Assembly: GCA_016214345.1 (NCBI GenBank)
Contig: JACROR010000001.1
Span: 1,264-65,263, forward strand
Source: Candidatus Niyogibacteria bacterium
GTDB taxonomy: Bacteria; Patescibacteriota; Minisyncoccia; JACROR01
Reading direction: 5' to 3'
DNA length: 64,000 nt
The position numbers were made by a program, and so were the translations under genes. The number at the start of each line of letters is the position of its first letter. Position 1 is the stretch's first letter. The notes under the pieces were generated by a model that worked only from the letters and a program-made list of their open reading frames with translations, did no database searches and was not told where the DNA came from. Shown here in pieces: positions 8,578-58,375 of the stretch.

Positions 8578-9957
8578 ATGCCCGCAAGAGAAAAATTCAA
8601 TAAAATAATACTAATTTTAGGAGATGTCGCCATTCTCTATATTTCGCTACTTCTCGCTCTTACCATAAGATACGGCGGACTGCCCACTCCAAAAATCTGG
8701 AACGCGCATTTAATCCCTTTTGCCATAATATTTTTCATCTGGATTGTTATATTTTATATAGCCGGATTATACGACCCCGCCAAATTCATTTCCGCCAAAG
8801 AAATGCAAAAACAAATAATATGGGCGATGGAATTCGCGGGCATCATCGCCTTAGCCGCATTTTATTTAATTCCGTATTTCCTCATAACCCCGAAAACCAA
8901 TCTGTTTTTGGATTTAATAATAACGCTTCTGCTACTCATTATCTGGCGCAGAAATTTTTTGATGTGGCTCATAAAGGCGCGGAAAATAAATATTTTATTT
9001 TTTGGCTTATCCAAAGACATCGCGCAATTCATATCACATATTGCTAAAAATCCTCAATTGGGTTACCACATAGCGGCTATAATGAAACTACCCGAAGAAA
9101 ATGGCGGCACTTATGATATTCCTTCGGAAATTCCCGCATTTAACTTTGACCACAACTTGACCGACTTAATAAAAAACAAAGGCGTTTCTTTAATCGTGGC
9201 ATCCAGCAGTATAAAACAAAACCAAGAAATTATAAGAATGTTTTATGAAATACTGCCGCTTCGCGTCTCCATCGTAGATTTTCCGAGATTTTACGAGGAG
9301 CTTTTTGGCAAAGTGCCGGTGTCTCTCATTACCGAATCTTGGTTTTTGGAAAATCTTATGGAGTTAAACAAAGGAGCGTTTGAAACCATAAAACGATGGT
9401 CAGATATTATTTTGGCCATTGTCCTTGGCACCGCGACCATTATCATTACTCCTTTGATTGCTTTATTGATAAAAATAGACAGCCGAGGTCCGGTATTTTA
9501 CAGCCAAAAACGAATTGGCAAAGACGGCAAAATATTTGAAATTATTAAATTCCGCTCCATGGTCCAAAATGCCGAACAAGGCGAAGCAAAATGGGCAATG
9601 GAAAAAGATGGCCGCGTTACTAAGTTTGGCGGTATTTTGCGCAAAACCAGAATAGACGAACTGCCGCAACTCTGGAATGTGCTGAAAGGAGAGCTGTCTT
9701 TCGTTGGCCCTAGACCTGAGCGCCCCGAATTCGTGGAAATGTTGAAAAAAGAAATACCGCATTACGCCATGCGGCACATCGTAAAACCGGGACTTTCCGG
9801 ATGGGCGCAAATTAATTTTCCTTACGGCGCTTCCGTGGAAGACTCCATGGAAAAACTGCAATATGATCTCTATTACATAAAAAACCGATCACTGCCTCTG
9901 GAATTTTCCATATACTTAAAAACCATAGCTACGGTCATCCGCCGTCAAGGCAGATGA
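8578..9957 (+). CDS. Polyprenyl-phosphate hexose-1-phosphate transferase (WbaP/PglC-type initiating phosphoglycosyltransferase, bacterial sugar transferase family)
   Basis: 4-5 N-terminal TM helices, then the conserved C-terminal PGT domain: DIILAIVLG..., KFRSM, DELPQLWNVLKGELSFVGPRPERPEF. Confidence 0.85.
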   Translation: MPAREKFNKIILILGDVAILYISLLLALTIRYGGLPTPKIWNAHLIPFAIIFFIWIVIFYIAGLYDPAKFISAKEMQKQIIWAMEFAGIIALAAFYLIPYFLITPKTNLFLDLIITLLLLIIWRRNFLMWLIKARKINILFFGLSKDIAQFISHIAKNPQLGYHIAAIMKLPEENGGTYDIPSEIPAFNFDHNLTDLIKNKGVSLIVASSSIKQNQEIIRMFYEILPLRVSIVDFPRFYEELFGKVPVSLITESWFLENLMELNKGAFETIKRWSDIILAIVLGTATIIITPLIALLIKIDSRGPVFYSQKRIGKDGKIFEIIKFRSMVQNAEQGEAKWAMEKDGRVTKFGGILRKTRIDELPQLWNVLKGELSFVGPRPERPEFVEMLKKEIPHYAMRHIVKPGLSGWAQINFPYGASVEDSMEKLQYDLYYIKNRSLPLEFSIYLKTIATVIRRQGR

Positions 9958-15249: not shown

Positions 15250-16203
15250 CTATTGTGGGGACGGCGCGGGAGTTAAATTCATCCAATCAAAATTGTAAGC
15301 AGGGGCTGTGGTGGGAGCGGTCGCAGGAGCTGACACGGGCGCTGAAGGCGTTACTGCGGGAACCGCCGCAGGAGCGGCAGACGGAGCAGCCGCGCCGCCA
15401 AACACTTCCTGAATCTTGGCGCGAGTTTTAGGACCAAGCGCTCCATATCCGGTAGTTGCCGGAGTTCCCGAAGAAACAATTCCGTACTTTGCTTGGAATT
15501 TTTGAAGAGCCTTCTCGGTTAAAGATCCAAAATATGACGTTTCTTTGCCGAGAGATCCAACACCGGAGCTCGCAATTTTGGTATCAGCGTCTGAATTAAG
15601 CAATTGCTGAAGCCTTTTTACATCTAAACTTGTTGCGCCTATCTTGAGTGCCTTGCTAAATACCGGAGACACCGCTACTGCTACGGACGATGGCGTAGCC
15701 ATTATCGCGGCTGGTATGGTGGGCGCGGTAACCACTGCCACGGGGGCAGATACTGCCACTGCTCCGTTTTGCGCGGGAATAACCGGAGCAATTCCACTAC
15801 CACCTCCGCCACCGCCTCCGCCTCCTCCACCACCGTCTACAATACAAGCTGAAGTTTGTGGGGTTATGGTAGGCGTTACTTGCACACCGGCTGACGGATT
15901 GGAAATAGTAGTAATCGCGTTGGAAGAAGAACAAGTGGAAGTAATCGCCAACGATCCCAACTGACTTACAGTTAAGAACCTTCTGTCCGAAGAAGTTATT
16001 TCTATAGACTGCCCGCCCGACAAAGTTACCGTAAAATCGCTGGCGCTAACTGTTATGGAATCAACAGCGGCAGTAGAGCCGGACACATTCAAATTTATAC
16101 TAGAAACGCTGATGATGGCGTCCGTACCAAGACTTAGGTCTGCCGCCAACGCTGAAACGGGTAAAAGCAAGCTCAAGAAAATTGTTAAATAAATTTTCAT
16201 CAT
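15250..16203 (-). CDS. Secreted Ser/Thr/Ala/Pro-rich surface protein with poly-Gly linker and peptidoglycan-binding-like domain
   Basis: Signal peptide (MMKIYLTIFLSLLLPVSALA). A Ser/Thr-rich beta-like N-domain is followed by a G13 linker. A PG_binding_1-like segment (LDVKRLQQLLN...GSLGKETSYFGSLTEKALQKFQAKYGI) and an Ala/Pro-rich tail follow. Confidence 0.6.
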   Translation of the reverse strand: MMKIYLTIFLSLLLPVSALAADLSLGTDAIISVSSINLNVSGSTAAVDSITVSASDFTVTLSGGQSIEITSSDRRFLTVSQLGSLAITSTCSSSNAITTISNPSAGVQVTPTITPQTSACIVDGGGGGGGGGGGGSGIAPVIPAQNGAVAVSAPVAVVTAPTIPAAIMATPSSVAVAVSPVFSKALKIGATSLDVKRLQQLLNSDADTKIASSGVGSLGKETSYFGSLTEKALQKFQAKYGIVSSGTPATTGYGALGPKTRAKIQEVFGGAAAPSAAPAAVPAVTPSAPVSAPATAPTTAPAYNFDWMNLTPAPSPQ

Positions 16204-16231
16204 ATTGTTAATTAAATTTTCAAAAGCTAAA

Positions 16232-16867
16232 TTATCTCACTGCCCAGAAATTCAAAGTACCGGAAACAGTTTGTGTGCCACCAGGAGTTATTCCCTCATT
16301 AAAAAGATCCACATTAATCTGATTAATAATGGACGAAGATGCCGCTCGGATAAAAATTTGCGGATTATAACTTCCGGAGACCAGGCTAGAAGTCGCCATC
16401 ACAAATACTTTATCACCGCTACGAACACCAGCAGCGCTAGTGCATGCAAAATTTTGTGTGGTTGAGGCGGTTAAAGTCGTGCTAGTCAGGTTACATGTCC
16501 CAAATACCATTCCGGCAATAGTGCCATTAGTGCTGTCTCCGCCGACTATCAAACTCGTTGAACTCGCGGTTCCCACAACCTCCAACGCAGTGTTAGGAGT
16601 TATGGTCAGCACACCAACGCGATTATTGGTTCCATCAACATAAAAAGTGGTGGTATCCACTGTAAAATTAGTACCAACCGTGGCGGCTGCGCTCATAGTG
16701 ACCGCGCCGGTCAATGTGCTTGCGCCGGTAACATCTAGTGTGCCGCCGGTATTAATACTCGTGCTAATCGTAGTAGCCGCGCTCGTAAACAACGCTACCA
16801 AAAGAAAAGACATCAAGCTCGCCATTATAATGCCTGACGCCTTTTTCGTATCTAAAAATCTTCGCAT
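16232..16867 (-). CDS. Secreted Thr/Ser/Gly-rich surface protein (candidate O-glycosylation acceptor)
   Basis: Signal peptide (MASLMSFLLVALFTSAA; the true start may be this internal Met). About 35% Ser+Thr with alternating beta-strand-like pattern and two Cys. AT-rich promoter region upstream. Confidence 0.55.
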   Translation of the reverse strand: MRRFLDTKKASGIIMASLMSFLLVALFTSAATTISTSINTGGTLDVTGASTLTGAVTMSAAATVGTNFTVDTTTFYVDGTNNRVGVLTITPNTALEVVGTASSTSLIVGGDSTNGTIAGMVFGTCNLTSTTLTASTTQNFACTSAAGVRSGDKVFVMATSSLVSGSYNPQIFIRAASSSIINQINVDLFNEGITPGGTQTVSGTLNFWAVR

Positions 16868-16989
16868 AATTATTTTTTACTAATTGATAATTTTCTAATT
16901 AAATAATGAACGTTATAAATCGACATTTATAATGTATTATTCTTAGTATAAATTAATTATGCCCGAAACTAAATTATATCTGTGGATAA

Positions 16990-19203
16990 CTATGGATTTC
17001 GGCCAGCCTTAATCTCGCTTATCAAGGCCTCGCCTTGTTTTTTAAATTCAGGACTCAATACTATGGCTTTTTCCAATTCTTTAACAGACATCGCGCGATT
17101 TTCCAACTTCAGATAAGTAGCCGCCAAACTTATATGATATTGGACATTGGATGGATCTTTTTCTATCAAGGACAGCCACACGTCTCTTACGCGATCATAT
17201 CGGCCAACACGGGCATAAGCAGTAAGTAATTTAGGATCTGCCACCACAATAGTGCCAAAATGTTTTTTTAATAAAGCGTCTGCGTTATCCTGATTGTCAT
17301 TAATTATCTCCACCATTGCAAGACCTAGGGCGGCCGCATCATAACTTTGATCCAAATTATAAGCGATCCGCATCATCTCAACCGCCTTATCGTTTTGGTT
17401 AAGCGATATATAAACATCGGCGAGCAAAAAATAAATTTGCTGTTTTTTGGGAGACAGCTCTAAAGCCTTGTTCAATGTAACAAGCGTGTCCGTAGTTTTG
17501 CCGCCATAACCATACAAAGAAGATAAAAACAAATAAGTTCTCGCGTCATTAGGATTATTCTTTGCCTGATCCTCCATTTCTTTTATGGCAGCGGTCAATA
17601 CTTTAATTTTGCTTTCCATCGGCACTTCGGACTTTACTATATTATTGGCATAGCCGCTTAATTGCTCTCTCGCCTCTCCGGTGCCAAACGAACGATAAGC
17701 AAAAACTTTGTCAAAATCCCGCAAAATTAAATCAACATTTTGCCCTTCCGTACTTACATCTCTCAAAGCATTTAAAAGCGCCTGCGACGCCAAAACCGGT
17801 TTCACATTAACAAAATACATCACGCCGGACATCGCCACAATAACCGAAACTGCCGCCGCCATATGCGCCGGACCGAACTCAGCCGGCCTTGATTTTTGTT
17901 TAGATTCCTCCAAAATCGCCTCCTGCGTTCCTTGAAAATGAATAAACCCGATAACCGTGAAAAAAAGATAATAAGAAATTAAATTATCAAAAACAAAAAA
18001 ATTATGGAAAAAATAAGCGGCAAAAAGTCCGGTAAAAATCGCCGGAGCATAAATACTTCCCGACAATCCGCGCTCTTGAACATATTTTTTCCATAACACA
18101 TACAATACGCTTACGAAAATAGAAAGATACGCCAACAACCCCAGCGCCCCGGCCGCTATCAGCCAATCAAAAAATACATTGTGCGAGCGATCAAACCACG
18201 GCTCTTGCCGCCATAATTTAGGCTCATAATATTTATTAAATACCAAATTATAATTCTCTATGCCGTAGCCCAGCAACGGATATTCCTTAAATCCCTGCCA
18301 CGACATTCCCCAAATAGTGAAACGCGACTCTACCGTTCTTTCCTGTAAAGACAAGTCGCTAAAACGCGTCAGTACATAATTATTTTTGACAAAATCAGTA
18401 TTGCGCGCAAGCCAAAAAGCTCCGGCTAATAAAATAATGCCAAAAATCACGCCGATGGAAACCTTTTTTACACTCCGGCTTTTATTAAAAATAACAAGCA
18501 AAAGCCCAAACAAAACCAACCCGCCCAGCAAACCCAAAATAGCTCCGCGCGTTGCCGTTAAAAATATTACCGGAACTTCAAAGATAAACAGCGCGGCAAA
18601 TAAGGCTTTAAGCCAGCGTTGTTCCGATTGAAAAAACAAAAACAGCGCCAAAAATACTTGAAACACCATAAAAATAGCCATATAGCTGGCATTGCCGAAA
18701 GTGCCATCAACTCTCGGACCGCTCTGTTGGGAGATTGCCAACACGCCATAAAATTGCAAATATCCGTAAAGCGCCATGGCCGCGCCCGTGGCGGCCAAAC
18801 TATAAAACATTTTCTTCCAATCAGCCGCGCCCTTGAACACGCTTATCAAGACCAAAAAGTAAGCAAACAAATGCAGATGCCCTAAGAGTCCTTCCATCCT
18901 CTCGTAATTGGACCAAAAACTGCGGTAAGGATTGGCACCGAACATGGTCGCCAACGCCAACACCACCACCGTAATGGTCACGGCATACAAAATAGGCGAA
19001 ATCGCGGGACGATATTCGCGCTTAAAAATAGCCAAAACCACCCAAAGAGCCAGCAATATTTCCACCGTAATCCGAAACGCGAAATTCTTGCCCGTGATAT
19101 ACGGAAAAAACATAGTGGAAGAAACGATAAACGCCGTGAGCGGCAAAAGAATAATGCCCGCTTTTACGATATAACCTAGAATATTTAAGGTTTTTGTAGA
19201 CAT
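16990..19203 (-). CDS. O-antigen-ligase-fold (Wzy_C) polytopic membrane protein with C-terminal TPR repeats; candidate O-oligosaccharyltransferase / ligase
   Basis: 737 aa. About 12 TM helices with a large Wzy_C-type loop region, then ~300 aa of soluble TPR-like repeats (e.g. LADVYISLNQNDKAVEMMRIAYNLD; YHISLAATYLKLENRAMSVKELEKAI). Confidence 0.7.
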   Translation of the reverse strand: MSTKTLNILGYIVKAGIILLPLTAFIVSSTMFFPYITGKNFAFRITVEILLALWVVLAIFKREYRPAISPILYAVTITVVVLALATMFGANPYRSFWSNYERMEGLLGHLHLFAYFLVLISVFKGAADWKKMFYSLAATGAAMALYGYLQFYGVLAISQQSGPRVDGTFGNASYMAIFMVFQVFLALFLFFQSEQRWLKALFAALFIFEVPVIFLTATRGAILGLLGGLVLFGLLLVIFNKSRSVKKVSIGVIFGIILLAGAFWLARNTDFVKNNYVLTRFSDLSLQERTVESRFTIWGMSWQGFKEYPLLGYGIENYNLVFNKYYEPKLWRQEPWFDRSHNVFFDWLIAAGALGLLAYLSIFVSVLYVLWKKYVQERGLSGSIYAPAIFTGLFAAYFFHNFFVFDNLISYYLFFTVIGFIHFQGTQEAILEESKQKSRPAEFGPAHMAAAVSVIVAMSGVMYFVNVKPVLASQALLNALRDVSTEGQNVDLILRDFDKVFAYRSFGTGEAREQLSGYANNIVKSEVPMESKIKVLTAAIKEMEDQAKNNPNDARTYLFLSSLYGYGGKTTDTLVTLNKALELSPKKQQIYFLLADVYISLNQNDKAVEMMRIAYNLDQSYDAAALGLAMVEIINDNQDNADALLKKHFGTIVVADPKLLTAYARVGRYDRVRDVWLSLIEKDPSNVQYHISLAATYLKLENRAMSVKELEKAIVLSPEFKKQGEALISEIKAGRNP

Positions 19204-19224: not shown

Positions 19225-19700
19225 TTAAAAAATTACCAAAAATGAAGCCCAGGCGCTATTATTCTCCGTGCCATTATCTAACGTGATGGTGTGTTTGAGA
19301 TTCCGAGGGATCGCACTCAGCCGTTTGGCGATGATACTGTTAGTGGTCGCACTGATTTTGTCTTTCACTCTAGTGATGAAATATATTCCGGTCTTTCTTT
19401 CGAGAAGGGCGTTCATTCCCGGCTTGAGTAAGCTCAACAAATTCAGATACATACGAGACTCCTTAATACATCTAAGGAGAATGAAACAATTCAACAAGTT
19501 TAAGGGCGCCAAAGGCTTCATAATGGTATGGGACCACATTTCGCCGCCGCAGGCGGCGAGAAATTCCCTCCGCGAATCCACCAGCTGGCGGACGAAAAGG
19601 CGGCGAAGCCGCACCGATGACAATTTCAAGTTTTTCTTTGGCGGCAAATTTCAAAGACATGAATTTTTATCAAAAATCAAATGTTCTTTCGGAATTTCAA
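19225..19700 (-). mobile_element. Degraded IS30-family transposase remnant (frameshifted/truncated DDE core)
   Basis: Minus-strand ORF 19225-19647 contains ALLERKTGIYFITRVKDKISATT...PRNLKHTITLDNGTEN, matching the IS30 DDE region (...lvERksr...ktiTfDNGsEF). Upstream parts are in other frames (19472-19660) and no intact full-length transposase is present. GC here is locally higher than in the neighbours. Confidence 0.4.
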
Positions 19701-20592
19701 ATTCTGCTTTCAAGCGACGCTTGGATAAATACTGATTCGCATCCTCCGATCCTTGAATATTCAAATATTGATAGCCGAGGGAGTTTGCAATTCTCGCACA
19801 TTCTAACATAAGTGCGCGATATAAATTTCTATACTCAAAATCATTTACCAAAACATTGCATCCTAAACATTTCTGAGATATTTCACTAAATACCAGAAAA
19901 CCAATCAGTTTATTATTTTTCGAATCGTAAATACCAAAATGAATCAAGTCGCTTCGAGAATTGCAAAACATTTCGTGAGAGGCGCGGAGATCCTCTTTAC
20001 TCCAGTCATTGCGAAGATGCATATTATCTATCCACTTTTTTAAAATTTCTCCTACAATTTCAAGATTGCAAACTTCCCATCTTCGCACTTCAATTGAGTA
20101 CTCTCGGTTGAATCGCGCCTGTTCTTCACGCAAAGATTGAAAATTCGGACCTTTAAGGTCAGTAAGTTGTTTTGTGTTCAAAATCTGTTCCGGGAAAGAA
20201 TTATCGTCATATTTGGACTGGTTATTCCACCATTCATCTACACGATAGTGACGACAACCAAGTTTCAAAAGCTCTTGCTCAAGTTCCATTCCTACATTTT
20301 TTATAAAAACTGGTTTGCCCGAATTTTCAAAGCATTCTTTTGTAACAGTAGATATATTCTTTGCGCGATTATCTCCCGCGCAAGCAACAACAACAAAATT
20401 ATCCACACCTAGCTTTTTGGTAAAAATAACAATTCCATCTTCAAGCTTGCGGAAATCAAAGTAATTTCTCGTTGCTTGTAATGTATATCCATTACAAAAC
20501 TCAAAATCACAAGAATTGTTATGAAATTTATTAGCAAAATCTCGAAAAATCGGGAGAGCGTCATCAACATTTTTGCCCTTTGTTTCAGTCAT
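19651..20592 (-). CDS. Hypothetical GNAT-fold acyltransferase-like protein (FemAB / BioF2-like / DUF2156-like family)
   Basis: 313-aa AT-rich ORF. The C-terminal half (LIGFLVFSEI...YRALMLECARIANSLGYQYLNIQGS) resembles tandem-GNAT Fem/BioF2-like acyl/aminoacyl transferases. Only the ORF itself is confident. Confidence 0.35.
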   Translation of the reverse strand: MTETKGKNVDDALPIFRDFANKFHNNSCDFEFCNGYTLQATRNYFDFRKLEDGIVIFTKKLGVDNFVVVACAGDNRAKNISTVTKECFENSGKPVFIKNVGMELEQELLKLGCRHYRVDEWWNNQSKYDDNSFPEQILNTKQLTDLKGPNFQSLREEQARFNREYSIEVRRWEVCNLEIVGEILKKWIDNMHLRNDWSKEDLRASHEMFCNSRSDLIHFGIYDSKNNKLIGFLVFSEISQKCLGCNVLVNDFEYRNLYRALMLECARIANSLGYQYLNIQGSEDANQYLSKRRLKAEFEIPKEHLIFDKNSCL

Positions 20593-22757: not shown

Positions 22758-24110
22758 TCATGTTGGGTGCTGAAATTTTTGAATTATTTTAATAATTTCA
22801 TTTTCAGCGCGCACACTTGACTGACCGTCTGAATTTCCCAATAAATCTTTGAATAATTTTTTCTTACTGATCATATCATGACTAGTATATAAATCTGAAT
22901 TGAAAATATATTTTTCAAGATCTGTTTCGGTTTTTATATAATTGACCAACTCCGGATGCTCGCTAAAATAATCCCAGGGTTTATCAGTTATTAAGTCTCC
23001 AAAATAAGGCGAAATTAAAACCTTTTCAAAAATAAGCGCCTCAAGACAGGTGGTAGAATTAAAACTTATCACGGCTATAGAATTCTTGATTAAATCAAGG
23101 GTGTCGCCGATATTGGTAATTACCAGATTGTCTATGGGATCTTTAAAATTATCCGCTAAAATTTGCTTAACATATTGAAAATAATGGCCGGCAAATTTTG
23201 TTTTGATTATTACTTTTATATTTTTATTATCCGCGGCAAATTTAATAACCGATTTATGAAAATTGTAAAATCTATCTCTTATTTCTTTAATTTTATTATC
23301 ATCTTTTATAAACAAGCCGAGAAGTCTATCATCGGGGTCCGAGGAAAAACACACTACCTGCTTGCTAATATATTTTTTTTCTTTTTTCGGCATTGTAAAG
23401 TAGTAATCAAACCGCGGCATGCCAACAATTTTAGTATTATTCTCTGAAATTCCCGAGAGGGAGTTATTCAGCAACGCCCTCCTAATTTCGTTGCTGTAGA
23501 ACAAAATCTCAGCACCCCTAAATTTATAAACCTTAAATAAATCAGCCCATTCTTTTCCATACCCAGGAACAAGTAGCCCTTCTTTGTGCAGAATAATGAA
23601 AGGAATCCCATTTTTCGTACACACATCTTCCAACTCCTGTTGCTCCGGATAACCGAAATTACCAGATAAAACCGCATCAAATTTTATTAATCTGCGCAAT
23701 GCGGGAATCATCTGGCTTAAATATAAATTGTACTTTCGCTTAGCGTCACCCGCTAAATTACAAATATGATAATTTTCTTCTGTTAGCTGATTTCTCTCTG
23801 ATTCTGTCAAAAAATAATCAAAAATCATACGAAAATAATTTTTAAAAATTACAACATACTTAATGCGCCCTCCAAAATTCGCTAGCGCCTCTATGTCATT
23901 TAAAAAAACGCTCCTGCCCAAACAAAGGACCGTAAAATCGCCCCTTCTATTAACTTTGCTTGCAATCATCATAAAAATCAGGGCCGTTAATTTTGGATAA
24001 TTGATAAACAAACTAAGCTTAACGAGAAGAATAAATAGCGAGGACTTTATTTTGTGTCTTGCTTTCTTGAATATCGAACGATCTTGTATTGCTAAGATTA
24101 TTTTTTCCAT
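22758..24110 (-). CDS. Putative GT-B glycosyl/glycerophospho-transferase of the TagB/TagF / capsule-biosynthesis (KpsS-like) type; candidate nonulosonate transferase
   Basis: 450 aa and AT-rich. The C-terminal pattern ...IKTKFAGH...LVITNIGDTLDLIKNSIAVISFNSTTCLEALIFEKVLISPYFG resembles the TagF-family HP...LITDYSS...KP(v/i)i core. It is paralogous in architecture to the 39816-41315 protein. Confidence 0.4.
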   Translation of the reverse strand: MEKIILAIQDRSIFKKARHKIKSSLFILLVKLSLFINYPKLTALIFMMIASKVNRRGDFTVLCLGRSVFLNDIEALANFGGRIKYVVIFKNYFRMIFDYFLTESERNQLTEENYHICNLAGDAKRKYNLYLSQMIPALRRLIKFDAVLSGNFGYPEQQELEDVCTKNGIPFIILHKEGLLVPGYGKEWADLFKVYKFRGAEILFYSNEIRRALLNNSLSGISENNTKIVGMPRFDYYFTMPKKEKKYISKQVVCFSSDPDDRLLGLFIKDDNKIKEIRDRFYNFHKSVIKFAADNKNIKVIIKTKFAGHYFQYVKQILADNFKDPIDNLVITNIGDTLDLIKNSIAVISFNSTTCLEALIFEKVLISPYFGDLITDKPWDYFSEHPELVNYIKTETDLEKYIFNSDLYTSHDMISKKKLFKDLLGNSDGQSSVRAENEIIKIIQKFQHPT

Positions 24111-25235: not shown

Positions 25236-27029
25236 TCATTTTCTTACATTATACATCTTGAAAAAGTGCGAATCTTTGTCTTTAAGAAGTTCGTCTGGCA
25301 TCCCCTCTTCAATAATTTTTCCATTTTCCAAAACAATCAGCTTGTCTGAAATCATAACCGTAGAAAGACGATGAGCGATCGCTATAACCGTCATCTTCCC
25401 CTTCAGACTTTCTATTGATTTTTGTATCATCATCTCCGATTCATTATCCAGCGCGGATGTTGCCTCATCAAGTATTAATATTTGTGGCCGTCTTACCAAT
25501 GCACGAGCCAACACAATCCTTTGACGCTGCCCTCCGGAAAGCATCGTTCCGCGCTCTCCAACAATTGTTTTGTATCCATTCGGCTGTTTTTCTATAAATT
25601 CATGGATATTTGCCATTCTGGCCGCCAAAACAATATCTTCGTGTTCCAATGCTTCATTATAAAACTTTATATTATTTTCAATGGTGTCATTCAGCAGAAA
25701 TATATCCTGCGAAACATAGCCTATATTTGCGCGCCAACTGGAAAGTTTAATATTATCAATATTTTCTCCATCCAATAAAATAACGCCTTTTTGCGGATAA
25801 AAAAGCCGTAGCAACAAATCAACGATCGTGGTTTTCCCAGCCCCAGACTGCCCCACCAAGCCAATGATTGAACCTTTTTTGATGTCAAAACTCAAGCCAG
25901 ATAGCACATATTCTTTTCTTTCGTCATCATAAGCAAAGTGTACATTTTGCAATTTTAGACTCTTCTGAAAAGAAAAGGTTTTTTGTCCACCATCTTTCTC
26001 CGCGCATTGAATCGTTTCATCTTTATAATTCAATACGCTCATTAGGTGTGGAATCTGCGAGCTTATCGCATGCGCCTGTGATTGCGCCAACTGTATATTC
26101 GCAAATACTTTATTGATAGCATAAATAATAACCGCGAAAGATGCTAAATTAAGCATTGTTGTTTTGTAAAAAAAAGAGAATATGCCAATGATGAAAATGA
26201 GCCCCACTGGTTGTAAGATTACATTGGTGCAATTCTTAAGCATAGAAACTCTGATATATAGATCTTTCATGCGTTCAAAGTACGTAAGTCCAACAGTTAA
26301 TACGCTCTCGCCGACAAACATGGCCTTCACAGTCTTCATACCAATCATATGTTCATTAACATAATGGGCGATGTGTTTATATTTTTGGGTTATTTCTCTG
26401 TAAGCAACTCGGTTTCTATAAAATAAAGGTTTAAAAATAATAAAAATGACCCCGCCTAAGACGAAAACAAGAAGCGCAATAATCGGAGATATATTAAACG
26501 CTAAAATGCCGTACACGACAATATTAGCAATCATAATCATGATACCGCCGATATAGAAAAGAAGGGCCGAACTATTTACAATGTTGGTTGTTAAAATTTG
26601 ATCAAGATGACCAATTTTTTGTTTAGATAAATATCGCCAATCAGCGGCAAATGTCAGTTTCAGAAGTGCGCCTCTCATAGTCTTTTCATAATCCGCGGTA
26701 ATCTCTGCAATCACATACTGTGTAAAAAATAAAAAAGCTGCCTTTACCAAAAACAACAAAATAATAAATATTAACAAGTACTTAACCGTATATGTTATAT
26801 GAAAAAAAAGAAAGAATTTCTCAATAGCTTGAGAAATTTTGTCGGTTGCTTGACCGCCTTTAATAAAAGAAAGGATTGGAATGACTGTGTTAATGCCAAC
26901 GATCTCCAATATTCCTGAAAAAAAGCTCAAAGCAGCCATGCCGGCAATTTGCCATTTATACTGTCCGAACGCCCTTTGAAACAATCTAATGACCGCGAAT
27001 ATTTTAGTATTTTTAAATGCGAATTCCAT
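25236..27029 (-). CDS. ABC exporter, fused TMD-NBD (MsbA/PglK-like; candidate lipid-linked oligosaccharide flippase)
   Basis: Six TM helices N-terminally. Walker A GQSGAGKTT, ABC signature LSGGQRQRIVLARAL and Walker B ILILDEATSALD are present. Confidence 0.85.
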   Translation of the reverse strand: MEFAFKNTKIFAVIRLFQRAFGQYKWQIAGMAALSFFSGILEIVGINTVIPILSFIKGGQATDKISQAIEKFFLFFHITYTVKYLLIFIILLFLVKAAFLFFTQYVIAEITADYEKTMRGALLKLTFAADWRYLSKQKIGHLDQILTTNIVNSSALLFYIGGIMIMIANIVVYGILAFNISPIIALLVFVLGGVIFIIFKPLFYRNRVAYREITQKYKHIAHYVNEHMIGMKTVKAMFVGESVLTVGLTYFERMKDLYIRVSMLKNCTNVILQPVGLIFIIGIFSFFYKTTMLNLASFAVIIYAINKVFANIQLAQSQAHAISSQIPHLMSVLNYKDETIQCAEKDGGQKTFSFQKSLKLQNVHFAYDDERKEYVLSGLSFDIKKGSIIGLVGQSGAGKTTIVDLLLRLFYPQKGVILLDGENIDNIKLSSWRANIGYVSQDIFLLNDTIENNIKFYNEALEHEDIVLAARMANIHEFIEKQPNGYKTIVGERGTMLSGGQRQRIVLARALVRRPQILILDEATSALDNESEMMIQKSIESLKGKMTVIAIAHRLSTVMISDKLIVLENGKIIEEGMPDELLKDKDSHFFKMYNVRK

Positions 27030-31013: not shown

Positions 31014-32087
31014 TCAAACCGTGTCCCAATAAATTGCCTCTCTGGCTTTTATATCTTTTTTTGCTATCCTTCCGATAATCAAATGTTTAAATTTTGGAAT
31101 AATGCCAACCGCGGGTCGCAACTCAATAATGTCTTCTCTTTTTATAACTTCACCGCTCTTAATATTGCGCTTCGCGTGCAAAGACCGACGCTGAACAATT
31201 ACAGTTTCAGACTCCTCTTCAACAATATCTTTTTTTGTCGTTCCAAGCGCTTTTTCCAATAATCTGATTTTTTCTACCATTAACTTAAACTCCCGTGGTT
31301 CCATTGAGTGCGGGTGATCAGGACCAGCATCTTTTTTACTTAATGTAAAATGTTTTTCAATAACTTTGGCTCCAAGCGCTATAGCCCCCAACACAACAAC
31401 ATCGCCGGGTGAATGGTCGGAATATCCAGTGATAACATTAAAGGCTGTTTGATATGTTTTTAAAACATTAATATTTGCGCTCTCTATTTTTGACGGATAA
31501 TTGGTAATACATTGCAATAAAATTATTTTGTCGTTACCAGCATTCTCTATAACTCTTACTGCCTCATCTATTTCGGCTAATGTGCTGTCACCAGTTGATA
31601 AAATGATGGGTTTATTTTTTTGAGCGACATATTCAAGCATTTCATGCCACGTAATTTCACCGGAACCAATTTTAAAAAAATCAACTCCTAATTCATGCAA
31701 AAGATCAACGGCTGAAAAATCATACGGCGCAGAATTGAAAACCGTTCCTATTTCTTTACAATAATTATAAAGCTCTTTATGCCACTTGCGTGGAAATTCA
31801 GCTGCCCTGAAAACTTCGTCTATTGGCTTTTTCCAACTGCCATGCACGCCCTTAAGATTCATCTTGGCAAAACTCGGACCAGATATAATTGTATCAGCGG
31901 AGAACGTCTGAAATTTAACCACATCCGCGCCCGCTTCTTTCGCCGCCAAAGCAAGTTTTTTTGCCTTATCTAAATTCCCATCAAAATTGGCGCCAATATC
32001 AGCTATAAAATAGGATGGGTGTCCTTCTCCAACCAATCTTTTTCCGATTTTTATTTCTGAGCTAAAAGTTTTTTGATTCATAATCAA
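31014..32087 (-). CDS. NeuB-family nonulosonate synthase with C-terminal SAF domain (PseI/LegI/SpsE-like)
   Basis: FIADIGANFDGN N-terminus with a TIM-barrel core, and a C-terminal SAF-like region (IVQRRSLHAKRNIKSGEVIKREDIIELRP). Confidence 0.85.
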   Translation of the reverse strand: MIMNQKTFSSEIKIGKRLVGEGHPSYFIADIGANFDGNLDKAKKLALAAKEAGADVVKFQTFSADTIISGPSFAKMNLKGVHGSWKKPIDEVFRAAEFPRKWHKELYNYCKEIGTVFNSAPYDFSAVDLLHELGVDFFKIGSGEITWHEMLEYVAQKNKPIILSTGDSTLAEIDEAVRVIENAGNDKIILLQCITNYPSKIESANINVLKTYQTAFNVITGYSDHSPGDVVVLGAIALGAKVIEKHFTLSKKDAGPDHPHSMEPREFKLMVEKIRLLEKALGTTKKDIVEEESETVIVQRRSLHAKRNIKSGEVIKREDIIELRPAVGIIPKFKHLIIGRIAKKDIKAREAIYWDTV

Positions 32088-33292
32088 TTAAAATTTAATT
32101 TTCGTTGACGTTTTTTGTATTTTTCTATCTCTTCTTTTGATAAATGCACTTTGCCATACGCGGATGATCCTCCCCAAACATTATCTTTCACCCATTCTTC
32201 ATTGTCAATCCGCCATACGCGGGGATCTCTAAAAAAATCAGCTGTCTTCCAGAACTCATCTTCTTTCATACCAACGTATTCAAGCCAATGATATAAATCA
32301 CTTGATACGACATGGTCATATTTCTTTACCATTTCTATCCCCTCCTCGCGCGTCATGTAGCCATCTCTAACATCTTTTGAGGCGTGGTCAGACGCCCTGC
32401 CATATCCAAATTTTACAAACTTCATTAAATCGTGTATTCCATTTTCATATCTATCATCCAAATTTGAGAATCTCCTGTATGTTCTTTCAAACGGTGTTTC
32501 TTTTGGTTTCCATCCATATTCCTCCTGCACCATTTTGGCATGCCGATTCGGATCCCATCTAAAAAAATTTCCTATGTAAAGACCTCTCACGCCGACTTTC
32601 AAAATATCCTCGTCTGTCGGATATTTTGCCCATTGTAAATCTTTTTCACTTAATTGTTCAACGGGGTCGTTGATCATATCATGCCACTCGTAACCCCTCA
32701 AATCATGCTCATGTCTGACGCGGGCGCTAAACTCAACGAAATCATCAGGTTCAAACATTCCTGATATATCCCAGCTGGTTTCTCCCCAAATCATAAGCGG
32801 AATATTCAATCTAACTGCAACCTGTATCGGATATGTCATAATTCCGCAATGATTATGCCAATTCATATCGCCCATCTTCCTAAAACATAATCTATTTAAC
32901 TTCTTCAAAACTTCAACGCTGGGGCCAAAAACAAGATGGTCAACATTAAACACGTTGCGCATTCTGTCTCTATTATAATCCGCCTCAGGCAAGTAATTGT
33001 TCCCGTGATAAGTCGCTAGCAACGGCTTGAGCCCATATTCGGCAACCATTATATGCGTCTGATAATAACTATCTTTACCGCCACTAACAGGAATAATACA
33101 ATCGTAATCGCCCTTATTGTTTCTTGAGATTTCTTTAACTATTTCTCCAAATCTTGCCTTTCTCTTTACCCAAAAATCCGGCGCCAAAGCGTTAAATTTT
33201 TCGAAAGTTATACAACTTGAACACACGCCGGATTCATTCAGGCCCAAATTAACAGTTATTTGAGGATACACGCATCGTTTGCAATATTGCAT
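32084..33292 (-). CDS. N-acetyl sugar amidotransferase (WbuX/WbpG/PseA family; forms acetamidino sugars)
   Basis: N-terminal zinc ribbon CKRCVYP...GVCSSC followed by the PP-loop SGGKDS. About 400 aa, typical of this family. Confidence 0.8.
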   Translation of the reverse strand: MQYCKRCVYPQITVNLGLNESGVCSSCITFEKFNALAPDFWVKRKARFGEIVKEISRNNKGDYDCIIPVSGGKDSYYQTHIMVAEYGLKPLLATYHGNNYLPEADYNRDRMRNVFNVDHLVFGPSVEVLKKLNRLCFRKMGDMNWHNHCGIMTYPIQVAVRLNIPLMIWGETSWDISGMFEPDDFVEFSARVRHEHDLRGYEWHDMINDPVEQLSEKDLQWAKYPTDEDILKVGVRGLYIGNFFRWDPNRHAKMVQEEYGWKPKETPFERTYRRFSNLDDRYENGIHDLMKFVKFGYGRASDHASKDVRDGYMTREEGIEMVKKYDHVVSSDLYHWLEYVGMKEDEFWKTADFFRDPRVWRIDNEEWVKDNVWGGSSAYGKVHLSKEEIEKYKKRQRKLNFN

Positions 33293-46886: not shown

Positions 46887-48716
46887 TTATTTAATCAATG
46901 AATATCCAAATAAATTATTAGACGTAAATACTAACTCTGGACCGCTTAATTGGTCAATGACATTCTTCGGCAAAGGACCTACGGATAAAATATAATCTAA
47001 CCTGTAACGCATCAACTCTTTCTTGAAGTCTCGCGCCATAAATTGCCGATAGTCCGCCGGAAATCGCGCCAGACGTTCTTCCAGTAATTTATCGGAAAAA
47101 TCCGGAAAATCTTTGACATTGAAAAGTCCCTGCCAATTAGTATAGAGGCATCCCGTCGCTTCTCCCCTGTTTTGCCGTAAATAATCCTCAATGCCATTTG
47201 CCGGCACACCCTTTAATCGCAACTCTATCAAATAATTATGAAGCGACCGCTCATAGGGCATTAGGGAGAAGGTTTCTGTCGAAGCATATCGGTTGCAATG
47301 GCTTAACGCAGGAATTAAGACATTTAGCGCGTCTCCCTCTGGTCCATCTTCGCGTATTAAAACCACGCAATCTTTTTCTTGAGAATTTAACCACGCGAAA
47401 AGCGGCGCGTAAGACTGCTGATGCAAATTATATGCATAGCCGTGGCGATAAGCGCTCGCTTGCGTATAAATCCCGTACGATAAGGATACAACTATGATAA
47501 TGCCAATGCTCAACTTCCAAAAAAATAAAGATTCTTTTCGGACAATATTGTACAAAATCAACATCACCACCACTATGGCAAGCGGTATGGAATATTGCAC
47601 GAAATGATACGGCCAAATTGTTCTACCAGTTATAATCTGTTCGCTAAAAGCCCACAAAGAACCGAAAATAAAAGCAAAGCAGAATAAGTGCCAGTTCCGG
47701 AACGAACCAAAAATTCTATTTCTCAAAGCCGCCGTTTTATCCGAATACTTTAATGCGGAAAATAGAACTGCCAAAACATATGCCACCAAAACCGCAAGCA
47801 TCAATTTATTCAGCAGAGGATAATGCGTCAAGAAAAGCCCGCTTCGCAGAACCGATTCGGCATACCAGGAACTTTTGCTCGCCTGCCAAGACGAATACCA
47901 ATAAGGCGACGCGAGCAAAATGGCCGCAAGCAATGTATATGTTAAATTTTTAGCGGTCTGAAATTTCCCTTGAATTGAATACATTAAAATAAGCATCGCC
48001 AGGACGGACAAGGCCATGCCCCAGCTGAAAAAATAACTCCCCATCATCAAAGCCAAAAAAACGGATGCACTGAATATACTCACCGCCCGTCGCCCCGACT
48101 GCTGAATGATTTTCCAAACCAAGATCAAAAAAGAAAACAGGAATATCGCCCCCAATATCGGATTTACCGGCCGCGCCCACAATAAAAATCCGCCTATGTC
48201 ATTTTGACCTGAAAGCACCGACCATAAATGCCGATAATCGACCAGATCATAACCAAGAACAATAAAAAGCGCTCCAGCTATGGCATTAATCTTACGCGCC
48301 AAAAAATCGTCGCCTTCGCTTAGGCGATAAATCAAAAAATATGCCAACAAAAATAAAATTAACGGTAAAATAAATTTGCTTGCCAATAAAATATCTTTTG
48401 CCGGCCAACGCAACAAAAAAGCCGGGATGGCATAGAACATCTCGCCTACCGGAGGCGATAACGGCCATTCATTTTTGTATTCAAAAAAGAAAGGCGACCC
48501 AAGCGCCGGATGTCCATCCAAAATATCCTGTATGCGCGCCAGATAAGAACCTTCGTTCGGAGTCTGCATCGCGGGCACCCCCTGATAATGCGATCCCAGA
48601 GAAAAAATTAAAAATATATAAGGCGCCAAATAGATCACGCCAACCAGCAATGCCACGCAATAGGCCAGCTTGTGCCTTATAACGCTCTCCCAAAAATAAT
48701 TAACAGCATATCGCAT
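46887..48716 (-). CDS. Large polytopic membrane protein with C-terminal soluble domain (candidate GT-C-fold glycosyltransferase / polymerase)
   Basis: 609 aa with about 12-13 predicted TM helices, then a ~170 aa hydrophilic C-terminal domain. An acidic EGDD motif lies in an early loop. No family was recognised with confidence. Confidence 0.55.
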   Translation of the reverse strand: MRYAVNYFWESVIRHKLAYCVALLVGVIYLAPYIFLIFSLGSHYQGVPAMQTPNEGSYLARIQDILDGHPALGSPFFFEYKNEWPLSPPVGEMFYAIPAFLLRWPAKDILLASKFILPLILFLLAYFLIYRLSEGDDFLARKINAIAGALFIVLGYDLVDYRHLWSVLSGQNDIGGFLLWARPVNPILGAIFLFSFLILVWKIIQQSGRRAVSIFSASVFLALMMGSYFFSWGMALSVLAMLILMYSIQGKFQTAKNLTYTLLAAILLASPYWYSSWQASKSSWYAESVLRSGLFLTHYPLLNKLMLAVLVAYVLAVLFSALKYSDKTAALRNRIFGSFRNWHLFCFAFIFGSLWAFSEQIITGRTIWPYHFVQYSIPLAIVVVMLILYNIVRKESLFFWKLSIGIIIVVSLSYGIYTQASAYRHGYAYNLHQQSYAPLFAWLNSQEKDCVVLIREDGPEGDALNVLIPALSHCNRYASTETFSLMPYERSLHNYLIELRLKGVPANGIEDYLRQNRGEATGCLYTNWQGLFNVKDFPDFSDKLLEERLARFPADYRQFMARDFKKELMRYRLDYILSVGPLPKNVIDQLSGPELVFTSNNLFGYSLIK

Positions 48717-53701: not shown

Positions 53702-54622
53702 TTAAATTACATTAGTTTTAAAATATTCTATGGTACGTTTAAGCCCATCTTCAATGCCAACCTCGGGTTTCCAACTCAATTCTTTTTTAATGCGAGACGT
53801 GTCCGCTACCGCATATTTAGGATCTCCGGACCGCTCTCCCATGTCTTTCAGATCAAGGCGCCTACCCAAGATCTTCTCTATCTTCTTTAAAATATCTATC
53901 ATCCAAATACCTGTTCCGCTTCCCACATTGTAAACGCGAAAGCCTCTCCCCTTCTCGGCTGCGAACAAATTGGCGCGCGCTATATCTTCTACAAAAATAT
54001 AATCGCGTTTCTGCCGGCCCTTCCAATAATAAGGCATAGGCCGGCCACGCAAAGCGGCTTTGAGCCACTGCGGTATGGCTCGGGTGCTTTCCGCCTGCTC
54101 ATCATTCGGGCCGTAAACATTGAAAAATCGCAAAGCTATGCCCTCAATGCCGAAAGAATGATAATAAGCGCTCATGGCATGCTCGAACGCGAGCTTTGAC
54201 GCGCCATAAGGATTTATGGGACCTATGGGATCGTCTTCCGCGACTGGAGTCTTTTTGCGGCCATCATAAGACGCGGCGCTTGAGGCATAAACCATTTTTT
54301 TAACACCGGCTTTTTTCATGGCTTCCAATAAAATAATGCCGTTCATAAAATTATTCTGAAAATAAACCGCCGGATTGGTCATGGAATAAGTAATGGTGGA
54401 AAATCCCGCCAAATGGAAAACCACATCAATGCCGGGCAAAATTTTTCCCAGCAATTTTGGATCGGCGATCGAGCCTTTATAAAATTTGACACGCTCGTCC
54501 ACTAATTTGCGAAATCCGGAAGATAGGTCGTCAATCACGATGACTTCATGCCTCTTATCGCAAAGAAGTTTTACCAAATTTGAACCGATAAATCCGGCTC
54601 CGCCGGTAACTAATGCTTTCAT
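53702..54622 (-). CDS. NAD-dependent epimerase/dehydratase (SDR), tandem paralogue 2
   Basis: MKALVTGGAGFIGSNLV; YGASKLAFE; the same architecture as 52775-53698. Confidence 0.8.
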   Translation of the reverse strand: MKALVTGGAGFIGSNLVKLLCDKRHEVIVIDDLSSGFRKLVDERVKFYKGSIADPKLLGKILPGIDVVFHLAGFSTITYSMTNPAVYFQNNFMNGIILLEAMKKAGVKKMVYASSAASYDGRKKTPVAEDDPIGPINPYGASKLAFEHAMSAYYHSFGIEGIALRFFNVYGPNDEQAESTRAIPQWLKAALRGRPMPYYWKGRQKRDYIFVEDIARANLFAAEKGRGFRVYNVGSGTGIWMIDILKKIEKILGRRLDLKDMGERSGDPKYAVADTSRIKKELSWKPEVGIEDGLKRTIEYFKTNVI

Positions 54623-55377
54623 TATATTTTTTTATAATGCGTTTTCTGCCAAAGTTTATAAGTGTCCCGCAAAAATCCCGTTATTACCGAAAGTTTAACC
54701 AACGCTATTATCTTGCCTCTTTTGCCAACTTCGGAATCCGCGAACCCCGTAAGACGATAATAATGATGGACCCCAACCTCTCCGATAGTATAACCATTTT
54801 GAAGCGCCGACAAATATATCTCGGCGTTTATGACTCCTTGCGTCAGATCAGGTAAAAAATCCACGCCATCAATAATCTTCCTCTTATAAAGCTTGAAGGC
54901 GCAATTTATATCTTTTAATTTCAATCCAAACAACCACCTTAATGTTAAATTATAAAACCACGACATCCATATACGCATAAGCGGATCATTACGTTTCAAT
55001 TTATAGCCGGTCACTATGTCGTATTTATCCAGCAACGGTAAAAGCAGGTCCATCTCCTTAATGTCAAACTGGCGATCACCATCCGTATAAAATATAAGGT
55101 CTTTTGTGGAACTCCTAAAGCCGTCACGAAGCACATTGGCATAGCCGAAATTTTTTTCACGAGCCACAAGTTTTAAATTAGGGGTCGTCGTCGCCAATTC
55201 CCGAACTATGGGGTCGGTGCTGTCCGTGCTTCCATGGCTCATTACCAAAATTTCATAATCTTTGAACCGGCTTTTTAAATATTGATCTGCCTCCAAAACA
55301 ATATCTCTAATACACCCCTCTTCATTGAAGGCCGGCAAAAATACGGAAATGCTTTTTCCCATAAAACCCGTTATCAT
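54622..55377 (-). CDS. Glycosyltransferase family 2 (Dpm1/ArnC-like polyprenyl-phosphate sugar synthase)
   Basis: ISVFLPAFNEE N-terminus and TDGDRQFD (DxD). The soluble GT-A of 251 aa is typical of Und-P-sugar synthases. Confidence 0.75.
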   Translation of the reverse strand: MITGFMGKSISVFLPAFNEEGCIRDIVLEADQYLKSRFKDYEILVMSHGSTDSTDPIVRELATTTPNLKLVAREKNFGYANVLRDGFRSSTKDLIFYTDGDRQFDIKEMDLLLPLLDKYDIVTGYKLKRNDPLMRIWMSWFYNLTLRWLFGLKLKDINCAFKLYKRKIIDGVDFLPDLTQGVINAEIYLSALQNGYTIGEVGVHHYYRLTGFADSEVGKRGKIIALVKLSVITGFLRDTYKLWQKTHYKKI

Positions 55378-57715: not shown

Positions 57716-58375
57716 CTATGGCAATTTTTTAAACGCAAAAAATTTACTGCCCAAAAAATTCCCTATAAATGAAATAGGGATCAAGGTAGCCAACACGACA
57801 TTGGCCCATATTTTGGGGTCAAATCCTTGCGGCGCGCCCACCACATTCACCATTAAATGCAAAAAGGTGGTGTTCAAAAGCGAGGTAATGCCAACCACGC
57901 TAAAATATTTAATGTACTCCGATTTGCCGCGATTCGTGCCATAAGCGTTAAATGTCCAAAATTTATTCCAAAAAAATCCATTAGTGGCGGCGGCCACAAA
58001 AGATATGACCGCGAACAGATCGACTGCCAAACCTTGCGTAATGGCGGTGATCCAAATAAGCCCGTTAAATACGCCGATCTGCAAAAAAGTATTAAGCCAT
58101 CCGACGAGGCCGTATTTGCCGACCTCAAATGCCACGGGACGCCATATCAAAGCCATACGATAAAACACAAAAAGGCCTAACGCCGAGGCTAGAGGCAAGA
58201 TCATAAACCAAGCGATGAGCGCCACCCGCAATACCGTGGGATCATATTCGCGCGCGATCTCAAAAATTTTAATATTCTCCAGAACCGGCACGGCAAAAAG
58301 GGCAATAATCGCTCCCGCCGCGAACGCGCGCCAAAAATCCGATTTTGTAAATGAAATATCGCGGTTATGCTCCAT
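57716..58375 (-). CDS. GtrA-family membrane protein (polyprenyl-phosphate-sugar flippase-like)
   Basis: 4 TM helices and the GtrA hallmark ...NGFFWNKFWTF. Confidence 0.65.
   Translation of the reverse strand: MEHNRDISFTKSDFWRAFAAGAIIALFAVPVLENIKIFEIAREYDPTVLRVALIAWFMILPLASALGLFVFYRMALIWRPVAFEVGKYGLVGWLNTFLQIGVFNGLIWITAITQGLAVDLFAVISFVAAATNGFFWNKFWTFNAYGTNRGKSEYIKYFSVVGITSLLNTTFLHLMVNVVGAPQGFDPKIWANVVLATLIPISFIGNFLGSKFFAFKKLP

Follow-up and report, generated by a model that had tools for sequence, protein, structure and literature searches.

To which acceptor, and by which enzyme, is the glycan transferred that is encoded in this stretch of DNA? The window analyzed here is the whole stretch of 64,000 nt from contig JACROR010000001.1 of Candidatus Niyogibacteria. 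It contains a gene for a glycan ligase of the Wzy_C/WaaL fold (referred to as the ligase), followed by the genes for two secreted proteins, designated A and B (Table 1). All three open reading frames (ORFs) are present at these coordinates and are co-directional, and the spacer between A and B has only 28 nt. A preliminary description, made from the sequence alone, had interpreted the three genes as a candidate module for protein O-glycosylation. We consider the ligase to be almost certainly the terminal transferase for the glycan of this locus. That it is a protein O-oligosaccharyltransferase (O-OTase), with A and/or B first of all as its acceptors, is our tentative reading, to which we assign slightly less than an even chance. 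Proteins are the most likely acceptors because a lipid A-core is not expected in this organism, because an outward orientation is predicted for the tetratricopeptide repeat (TPR) domain of the ligase and because the gene is syntenic with genes for secreted Ser/Thr-rich proteins.

Table 1. Features of the window and of loci from related genomes (L-numbers denote such loci; positions given with them are locus positions)
Feature	Location	Strand	Basis or remark
Ligase, 737-aa Wzy_C/WaaL-fold glycan ligase	16990-19203	minus	Pfam Wzy_C and TPR families
Spacer between ligase and A, 122 nt, AT-rich	16868-16989	minus	sequence reading
Protein A, 211 aa, secreted or N-terminally anchored, Thr-rich; candidate glycan acceptor	16232-16867	minus	ORF, composition
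Protein B, 317 aa, secreted; candidate acceptor and/or peptidoglycan anchor for A	15250-16203	minus	PG_binding_1
Initiating polyprenyl-phosphate sugar-phosphate transferase, WbaP-type	8578-9957	plus	Bac_transf PF02397, E=8e-65
Fused ABC exporter, MsbA/PglK-type architecture	25236-27029	minus	ABC_membrane and ABC_tran; six hydrophobic segments and nucleotide-binding domain
Polytopic 609-aa protein	46887-48716	minus	~8+ hydrophobic segments, ~200-aa C-terminal soluble domain, no Pfam match
GtrA-family protein and GT2	57716-58375 and 54622-55377	minus	window scans
Stand-alone LPG_synthase_C protein, no membrane segments	19651-20592	minus	E=4e-16; directly upstream of ligase
B proteins with aromatic tail	window 15250-16203; L003 9299-10612; L004 9232-10359; L088 5851-7236	minus (window)	sequence
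Small TPR proteins, 172-267 aa	L005 4998-5801; L007 5368-5886; L089 809-1507; L090 1922-2593		one N-terminal TM helix and extracytoplasmic TPR
Large Ser/Thr-rich (~26%) proteins, 664 to ~1,180 aa	L005 1283-4822; L007 1765-5247; L089 1-672; L091 2699-4693		N-terminal PG_binding_1
Y1_Tnp transposase genes	L004 5149-5793; L007 9557-10240; L091 6219-6887		IS200/IS605-type
Ligase homologues linked to murB-/secA-like genes	L022, L029, L033, L035, L040, L045, L048, L050, L055, L061-L064, L067, L069, L071, L073-L075, L079, L081-L087		murB-/secA-like genes roughly at 8200-12900

Fold and active-site residues of the ligase

The ligase had been described as a Wzy_C membrane protein with C-terminal TPRs, and this architecture was recovered both by profile searches and by structure prediction. 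Residues 207-360 match Pfam Wzy_C (PF04932; E=8.2e-23, 81.3 bits at a cut-off of 31.7), and several TPR families match at about residues 536-723. The AlphaFold2 model, built with 38 homologues (pLDDT 88.3, pTM 0.81), has a WaaL-like polytopic fold with 13 transmembrane (TM) helices, of which TM9 and TM10 are connected by a large extracytoplasmic loop (residues 267-342). Past TM13 (residues 445-468), the chain continues into an all-helical TPR domain (~490-732, ~270 residues). The Lys/Arg distribution in the short loops obeys the positive-inside rule, with the N-terminus inside. From this rule and the 13th TM helix, the predicted location of the TPR domain is outside the membrane, where the catalytic loop is also located. 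A TPR domain of ~270 residues behind an extra 13th TM helix appears to be new.

In WaaL, the residues R215, R288 and H338 are important, and they are kept in PglL as R224, R298 and H349; the first Arg is placed in a short outer loop, the second Arg and the His in the large loop (PMC3643930). When the profile of the ligase family was compared by hhalign with E. coli K-12 WaaL, R219, R294 and H341 of the ligase paired with R215, R288 and H338, in an alignment that is itself weak (E=1.6e-3, probability 16%). The three residues are invariant across the 38 homologues. A phmmer search of the full ligase and of its membrane domain against the PDB sequences yielded TPR proteins only, or no match, so that structure comparison and profile alignment were needed to establish the relation to WaaL. 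Structurally, the best match is WaaL, a lipid-acceptor ligase; the TPR-domain protein LIC11990 from Leptospira is also a structure match, and functional literature on LIC11990 was not found. The ligase thus truly belongs to the Wzy_C/WaaL-fold superfamily, and its active-site signature is intact.

The fusion of Wzy_C and TPRs is widespread. Its homologues in the protein collection number over 5,000 and carry the annotation "O-antigen ligase family protein", and the ligase is identical to a protein of this name from a Candidatus Niyogibacteria metagenome-assembled genome. The preliminary description had regarded an O-OTase fused to TPRs and with adjacent acceptor proteins as uncharacterized. 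For the fusion, this has to be corrected, as WsfB and PglL have been described with a C-terminal TPR motif (PMC2943079). A literature search for Patescibacteria or Parcubacteria together with "O-antigen ligase", or for the function of these Wzy_C-TPR proteins, retrieved nothing relevant.

The host lineage, Niyogibacteria, belongs to the Parcubacteria group of the Patescibacteria. Cells of the candidate phyla radiation (CPR) so far described are monoderm (PMC8871954), and a lipid A-core is therefore an unlikely acceptor. Families involved in LPS-core or lipid A synthesis were not matched among the window ORFs of at least 150 aa, the set to which the scans of the window reported below also refer. 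Within these ORFs, there was no sign of the lipid A-core or of the LPS core locus that define the class of WaaL lipid A-core ligases. WaaL itself (E. coli; Cupriavidus metallidurans, 7tpg/7tpj) differs from the ligase in having 12 TM helices and no TPR, at 15% identity; its acceptor is not expected in Patescibacteria, and the window gene lies outside an LPS-core locus.

Gene order in related genomes

Conservation of the order ligase-A-B in relatives had been named beforehand as a test of the module. In a scan of species-representative genomes, 80 ligase loci were scored with HMMs for protein A and for the N-domain of B. The following counts cover the loci with at least 700 nt downstream, and identities are those of the ligase to the window protein. 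A and/or B follow immediately downstream in all four loci with at least 50% identity, in one of three at 45-49%, in 3/35 at 40-44% (with three more where they are found elsewhere in the locus, including the order A-B-ligase) and in 2/27 below 40%. Below 45% identity, the pooled count is 5/62. The ligase homologues at 65%, 55% and 53% identity (L001, L003 and L004) are each followed by A and then by B, and their B homologues have a signal peptide, an N-domain with two Cys, poly-Gly and one or two peptidoglycan (PG)-binding domains. The order was thus found to be kept among close relatives, and the test does not refute the module.

Adjacency of the three genes could in principle be a coincidence in a small, gene-dense genome. 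Patescibacterial genomes are compact, many of their secreted proteins are of low complexity, and the 122-nt spacer is no proof of co-transcription of the ligase with A. Yet homologues of A and B follow ligase homologues in many species representatives, where they were detected by HMM with E values from 1e-13 to 1e-67, and they even follow a ligase subfamily of only 26-27% identity. We consider coincidence to be extremely improbable and effectively refuted.

The linkage is, however, specific to certain clades: it holds for close orthologues and for scattered distant ones, whereas most ligase homologues at 37-44% identity lack A and B and have downstream genes of another kind, first a murB-like and then a secA-like one. 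These two gene identities are assigned from N-terminal sequence motifs alone. The murB-like motif is ..LAPYTTFKIGG..; the secA-like gene codes for ~830 aa, with the motif ..FGDEN.K... This arrangement suggests that the murB/secA-linked ligases form a paralogous group with a housekeeping function in wall synthesis or secretion. In a rough neighbor-joining tree without support values, the A/B-linked ligases separate from the murB/secA-linked ones. Two or more orthologous groups can thus be distinguished in the ligase family, with the window enzyme in the A/B-linked group. That the Wzy_C-TPR family falls into synteny classes of this kind appears to be a new finding.

The gene order was also analyzed from the side of A, with seven A-family members on long contigs. 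B is directly downstream of A, with the same layout, in all seven loci, and a Wzy_C gene is directly upstream of A in four. In two of these (L089 and L090), the Wzy_C protein upstream of A is only 26-27% identical to the window ligase but has the same length and architecture. In the other three loci (L005, L007 and L091), the A-B pair has no adjacent ligase; in L005 and L007, A-B is preceded only by a small membrane-anchored TPR protein, and L091 has neither this protein nor a ligase. A-B is the invariant core, since B follows A in 7/7 loci and Wzy_C is upstream in 4/7. A Wzy_C(-TPR) ligase is often linked to A-B, and the linked ligases can be highly divergent, but the pair also occurs without one.

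These data bear on the main rival explanation, which we consider unlikely. The exported polysaccharide may be destined for something other than a protein, with the ligase joining it, for example, to peptidoglycan, to a glycolipid anchor in the membrane or to a further wall polymer. The TPR domain of the ligase would then be a scaffold that docks to envelope machinery, and A and B would be structural envelope proteins, encoded here as parts of one cell-surface program and not as substrates. The rival stays alive because of the murB/secA-linked clade, which is the largest clade among the sampled homologues and suggests a housekeeping role, and because of the A-B loci without an adjacent ligase (3/7). 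It also fits that TPR scaffolds are typical of polysaccharide export systems, that the best structural match transfers to a lipid acceptor and that PG-binding domains are present in B and in ~1,150-aa proteins neighboring it in relatives. However, the order ligase-A-B recurs in distant Parcubacteria, even with the ligase subfamily of 26-27% identity, and such recurrence exceeds what shared regulation usually gives. In Gram-positive bacteria, moreover, wall polymers are normally attached by enzymes of the LCP family. The characterized monoderm Wzy_C enzymes that we found in the literature, WsaB and WsfB, are protein O-OTases (PMC2943079).

Proteins A and B

Both proteins had been described as secreted and rich in Ser and Thr, and this is borne out. 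Their N-termini have a hydrophobic, signal-like segment and a plausible signal peptidase I site, as read from sequence and alignment without use of a predictor. The content of Ser plus Thr is 29.4% for A and 23.7% for B, versus 9.7 ± 1.7% (maximum 14.0%) for the 56 other window ORFs of at least 150 aa. A and B are strong compositional outliers.

Protein A has no match in Pfam or NCBIfam. Its family consists of 1,539 cluster representatives at E<=1e-3 (565 at E<=1e-10), and the organism names attached to it are patescibacterial in every case. Family members share a common layout: a variable hydrophobic N-region, a conserved mature N-terminus, a stalk and a C-terminal beta domain. The mature N-terminus is strikingly conserved (ATTISTNxSTGGTLxVTGASTLTG), with T32, T33, T40 and G42 (nearly) invariant and a nearly invariant Thr/Ser cluster at residues 32, 33, 35, 36, 40 and 43. 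The stalk in the middle is rich in T/S/G/A and very variable in length, with whole proteins ranging from 115 to 569 aa. The C-terminal domain is constant (~95 residues), has two invariant Cys and ends in NFWAVR. It contains four A-[ST]-[ST]-[ST] motifs (101-104, 134-137, 158-161 and 175-179), which are present in at least 86% of 59 members. The Ser/Thr clusters of A are possible glycosylation sites or structural features. A was also considered as a type IV pilin-like substrate. This was rejected: the conserved part begins past the hydrophobic segment, the N-region is variable, and the prepilin motif Gly(-1)/Phe(+1)/Glu(+5) is not conserved in the A family.

Protein B starts with a signal peptide and a Ser/Thr-rich N-domain of ~100 aa with two Cys, followed by a run of Gly, an Ala/Pro/Val linker, PG_binding_1 and a tail. 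The PG-binding-like domain that had been noticed previously is a Pfam match above cut-off (PG_binding_1, residues 194-246, E=4e-6). The Gly tract, reported as G13, exists, but it has 12 consecutive Gly (residues 124-135), or 13 Gly among 14 residues. Runs of at least five Gly occur in 81 of 120 matches of the B family. The tail is rich in Ala, Pro, Ser and Thr and ends in ..FDWMNLTPAPSPQ. PglL modifies its non-pilin substrates in flexible low-complexity regions (PMC3643930), which the Ala/Pro/Ser/Thr linkers of B resemble. Taken together with the ligase, A and B appear to form a conserved trio that is new and that includes two uncharacterized protein families specific to Patescibacteria.

The B tail differs between clades. 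In the clade of the window (window residues 270-317), it has a conserved aromatic motif, sometimes repeated, with versions such as ..FDWMNLTP.., ..PFWLKLTP.., ..PWFLQLQS.. and ..PFWLQLTP... The B proteins of distant loci stop directly past the PG-binding domain and lack this motif. The aromatic motif could serve in sorting, or it could be a peptide that the TPR domain binds.

The genes around A-B in other loci add to this picture. The small TPR proteins are encoded just upstream of A-B (L005 and L007) or of the distant Wzy_C gene (L089 and L090). They were considered as split-off versions of the TPR domain of the ligase, but show generic TPR similarity to it only (hhalign probability 5-19%; no BLAST match). 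A 732-aa ORF downstream of A-B in L005 was considered as a divergent ligase and rejected, as it is a Ser/Thr-rich secreted protein without ligase similarity. In several Parcubacteria, the large Ser/Thr-rich proteins with N-terminal PG_binding_1 are encoded upstream of A-B, beside ftsK and not far from rplJ/rplL, and the genes for these proteins and for A and B look like a conserved envelope gene neighborhood. IS200/IS605-type Y1_Tnp genes adjoin the ligase/A-B module in three unrelated loci.

Glycan locus, proposed pathway and known systems

The rest of the window is one long glycan biosynthesis island. Pfam scans identified several GT4 and GT2 glycosyltransferases, two NeuB, two CMP-type cytidylyltransferases, a carbamoyltransferase, radical-SAM enzymes, many methyltransferases, nucleotide-sugar dehydratases and epimerases, a GlnA-type amidotransferase and an asparagine-synthase-like enzyme. 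The scans agree with the preliminary description, which had listed an initiating transferase and a PglK-like ABC exporter and had noted the lack of Wzx and Wzz: neither Wzx (Polysacc_synt) nor Wzz was matched in the window. The pathway that it described holds at the level of domain content, and the proposed tailoring with nonulosonic acids, methyl and carbamoyl groups has its counterpart in the two NeuB, the methyltransferases and the carbamoyltransferase.

Such a gene set has precedents. S-layer glycosylation in monoderms relies on three components, a WbaP-type transferase, an ABC transporter and an O-OTase of the Wzy_C family; the TPR is part of the O-OTase itself or the product of a gene just upstream (PMC2943079, section 3.2.3). 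WsfB, the S-layer O-OTase of Paenibacillus alvei, has Wzy_C and a C-terminal TPR motif; in Geobacillus stearothermophilus, the TPR protein WsaA is encoded just upstream of WsaB (PMC2943079). The window has the same set (Bac_transf, an ABC exporter and Wzy_C with TPR) in one glycan locus, and the arrangement of WsaA and WsaB is mirrored by the small TPR genes upstream of Wzy_C in L089 and L090. The enzymology proposed for the ligase and A/B (a Wzy_C O-OTase, TPR-assisted and ABC-dependent, in a monoderm) is already established for Gram-positive S-layers. The comparison with WsfB and WsaB, which is drawn from their published description, concerns the pathway logic of a Wzy_C enzyme in the glycan locus of a monoderm. 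There are differences. The acceptor of WsfB/WsaB is a large S-layer protein, whereas the candidates here are two small novel proteins; their exporter is Wzm/Wzt, whereas that of the window is a fused half-transporter of the MsbA/PglK type; and WsfB glycosylates Tyr (PMC2943079), whereas the candidate acceptors of the window are rich in Ser and Thr.

The Gram-negative O-OTases PglL, PglS, TfpO (PilO) and TfpM have the Wzy_C domain and the Arg/Arg/His trio in common with the ligase. They transfer glycans en bloc from Und-PP-glycan, and their genes are often adjacent to and co-oriented with that of the substrate (PMC3643930, PMC9829042). An O-OTase gene beside a substrate gene was found for 21 of 31 PglL homologues (PMC3643930) and also for TfpM/TfpO (PMC9829042). 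The usual substrates of PglL, TfpO and TfpM are type IV pilins; the window neighbors are not pilins, though secreted candidates do adjoin the ligase. PglL-type enzymes have ~420-600 aa and lack the 270-residue TPR superhelix of the ligase, and the hosts of PglL are Gram-negative, whereas the window host is expected to have neither an outer membrane nor a periplasm of the classical kind.

A more distant parallel exists in eukaryotes, where the TPRs of the TMTC proteins of the endoplasmic reticulum are luminal. TMTC1-4 are polytopic transferases with C-terminal TPRs and are implicated in cadherin O-glycosylation (PMC7001481, PMC7801869). They have an unrelated PMT-like GT-C fold and transfer a single mannose from Dol-P-Man, so that this is an analogy only.

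The fold of the ligase, its conserved residues, the gene content and the synteny are directly supported by the present analysis. Our inferences concern the donor molecule, the idea that the acceptor is a protein, the function of the TPR domain and the way in which A and B are related. The pathway that we propose would start with the WbaP-type transferase, which would prime the lipid carrier. Cytoplasmic glycosyltransferases and tailoring enzymes would then assemble the glycan, and the ABC exporter, a candidate flippase, would flip the lipid-linked product. At the outer face of the membrane, the Wzy_C domain would move the finished glycan from its polyprenyl-diphosphate carrier by means of R219, R294 and H341, while the TPR domain would hold or select the secreted acceptor. 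B, with its PG-binding domain and its tether of poly-Gly, would probably fix the assembly to the wall, and A, with its stalk and end domain, is probably the exposed glycosylated part.

The ligase might instead be a Wzy-type polymerase of lipid-linked repeat units, an explanation to which we give little credence. Pfam Wzy_C includes some polymerases, hence its name, and no other polymerase candidate was found among the scanned window ORFs. Wzx-type (Polysacc_synt) flippase genes are located beside the ligase homologue in L002 and L006. However, the three aligned residues are those of the ligase/O-OTase group (PMC3643930), and the window has an ABC exporter but no Wzx. Because pathways with an ABC exporter make full-length chains in the cytoplasm, a Wzy is not needed. 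With the protein as a polymerase, the locus would still be devoid of a ligase. The ORFs without a Pfam match were considered as a hidden Wzx or Wzy. Those at 22758-24110 and 32084-33292 have no TM segments, and the 609-aa protein, the only polytopic one, looks like a different kind of enzyme.

The interpretation of the ligase as an O-OTase thus has the Arg/Arg/His trio, the monoderm host and the synteny on its side, but several points weigh against it. TPRs also serve as scaffolds in polysaccharide export machines (a commentary by Whitfield and Mainprize from 2010 is ref. 99 of PMC2943079); a protein substrate, as deduced from the TPRs in the preliminary description, is therefore not implied. 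The PglL-specific model PglL_A (PF15864) has no match in the ligase (Pfam, E<=0.1), and TIGR03097 (exosortase-associated "putative O-glycosylation ligase") reaches 58.4 bits at a cut-off of 188.1, which places the ligase outside the named O-OTase subfamilies. PF15864 is a motif model that distinguishes PglL from WaaL (PMC3643930). Sequence and fold do not tell protein O-OTases from other Wzy_C ligases, a point stressed in PMC3643930. The ligase family as a whole is not defined by A/B, since most homologues at 37-44% identity lack them, and three of the seven A-B pairs have no ligase beside them. In addition, the window could code for a separate extracytoplasmic glycosylation route, formed by the GtrA-family protein, the GT2 and the 609-aa protein. 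It would use polyprenyl-monophosphate sugars in a GT-C-like manner and would be another way of modifying glycans or proteins outside the membrane. Finally, glycosylation of A or B is something that we infer.

A few further features of the window should be mentioned. The LPG_synthase_C protein corresponds to the aminoacyl-tRNA-using domain of the aminoacyl-phosphatidylglycerol synthase MprF; it may add an amino acid to the glycan or to a wall component. A transposase remnant upstream of the ligase gene (19225-19647) has no Pfam support and was rejected. A scan of the three-gene region for promoters and terminators gave no signal above the shuffled background. Between 22001 and 42000, the G+C content is 0.35-0.38, compared to 0.40-0.48 in the flanks. 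This stretch contains the nonulosonic acid genes, the ABC exporter and the carbamoyltransferase, and it is consistent with a horizontally exchanged, serotype-like cassette.

It is tempting to speculate that the ligase, A and B form a glycosylated surface appendage specific to Patescibacteria, although we consider this combined picture, taken as a whole, to be distinctly improbable. B would be tethered to peptidoglycan by its PG-binding domain, with poly-Gly as a flexible spacer, and would hold A, in which a constant beta domain at the C-terminus would follow a Thr-rich stalk of variable length. As a dedicated receptor, the TPR domain of the ligase would catch A and/or B as they leave the Sec channel, and A/B would be coated with the locus-specific, nonulosonic acid-containing glycan. 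If so, the appendage could be a strain-variable contact surface between episymbiotic cells and their hosts or phages.

Patescibacteria account for a very large share of all bacterial diversity and have hardly been cultured. Attachment to hosts is probably mediated by the cell surface, whose glycoconjugates have hardly been described. The practical gain from our analysis is a testable hypothesis and not a new principle. If the ligase glycosylates A and/or B, this would be the first defined glycoprotein system of Patescibacteria. It would come with a compact enzyme-acceptor pair, possibly useful for glycoengineering, and it would add two new families of envelope proteins with predicted roles.

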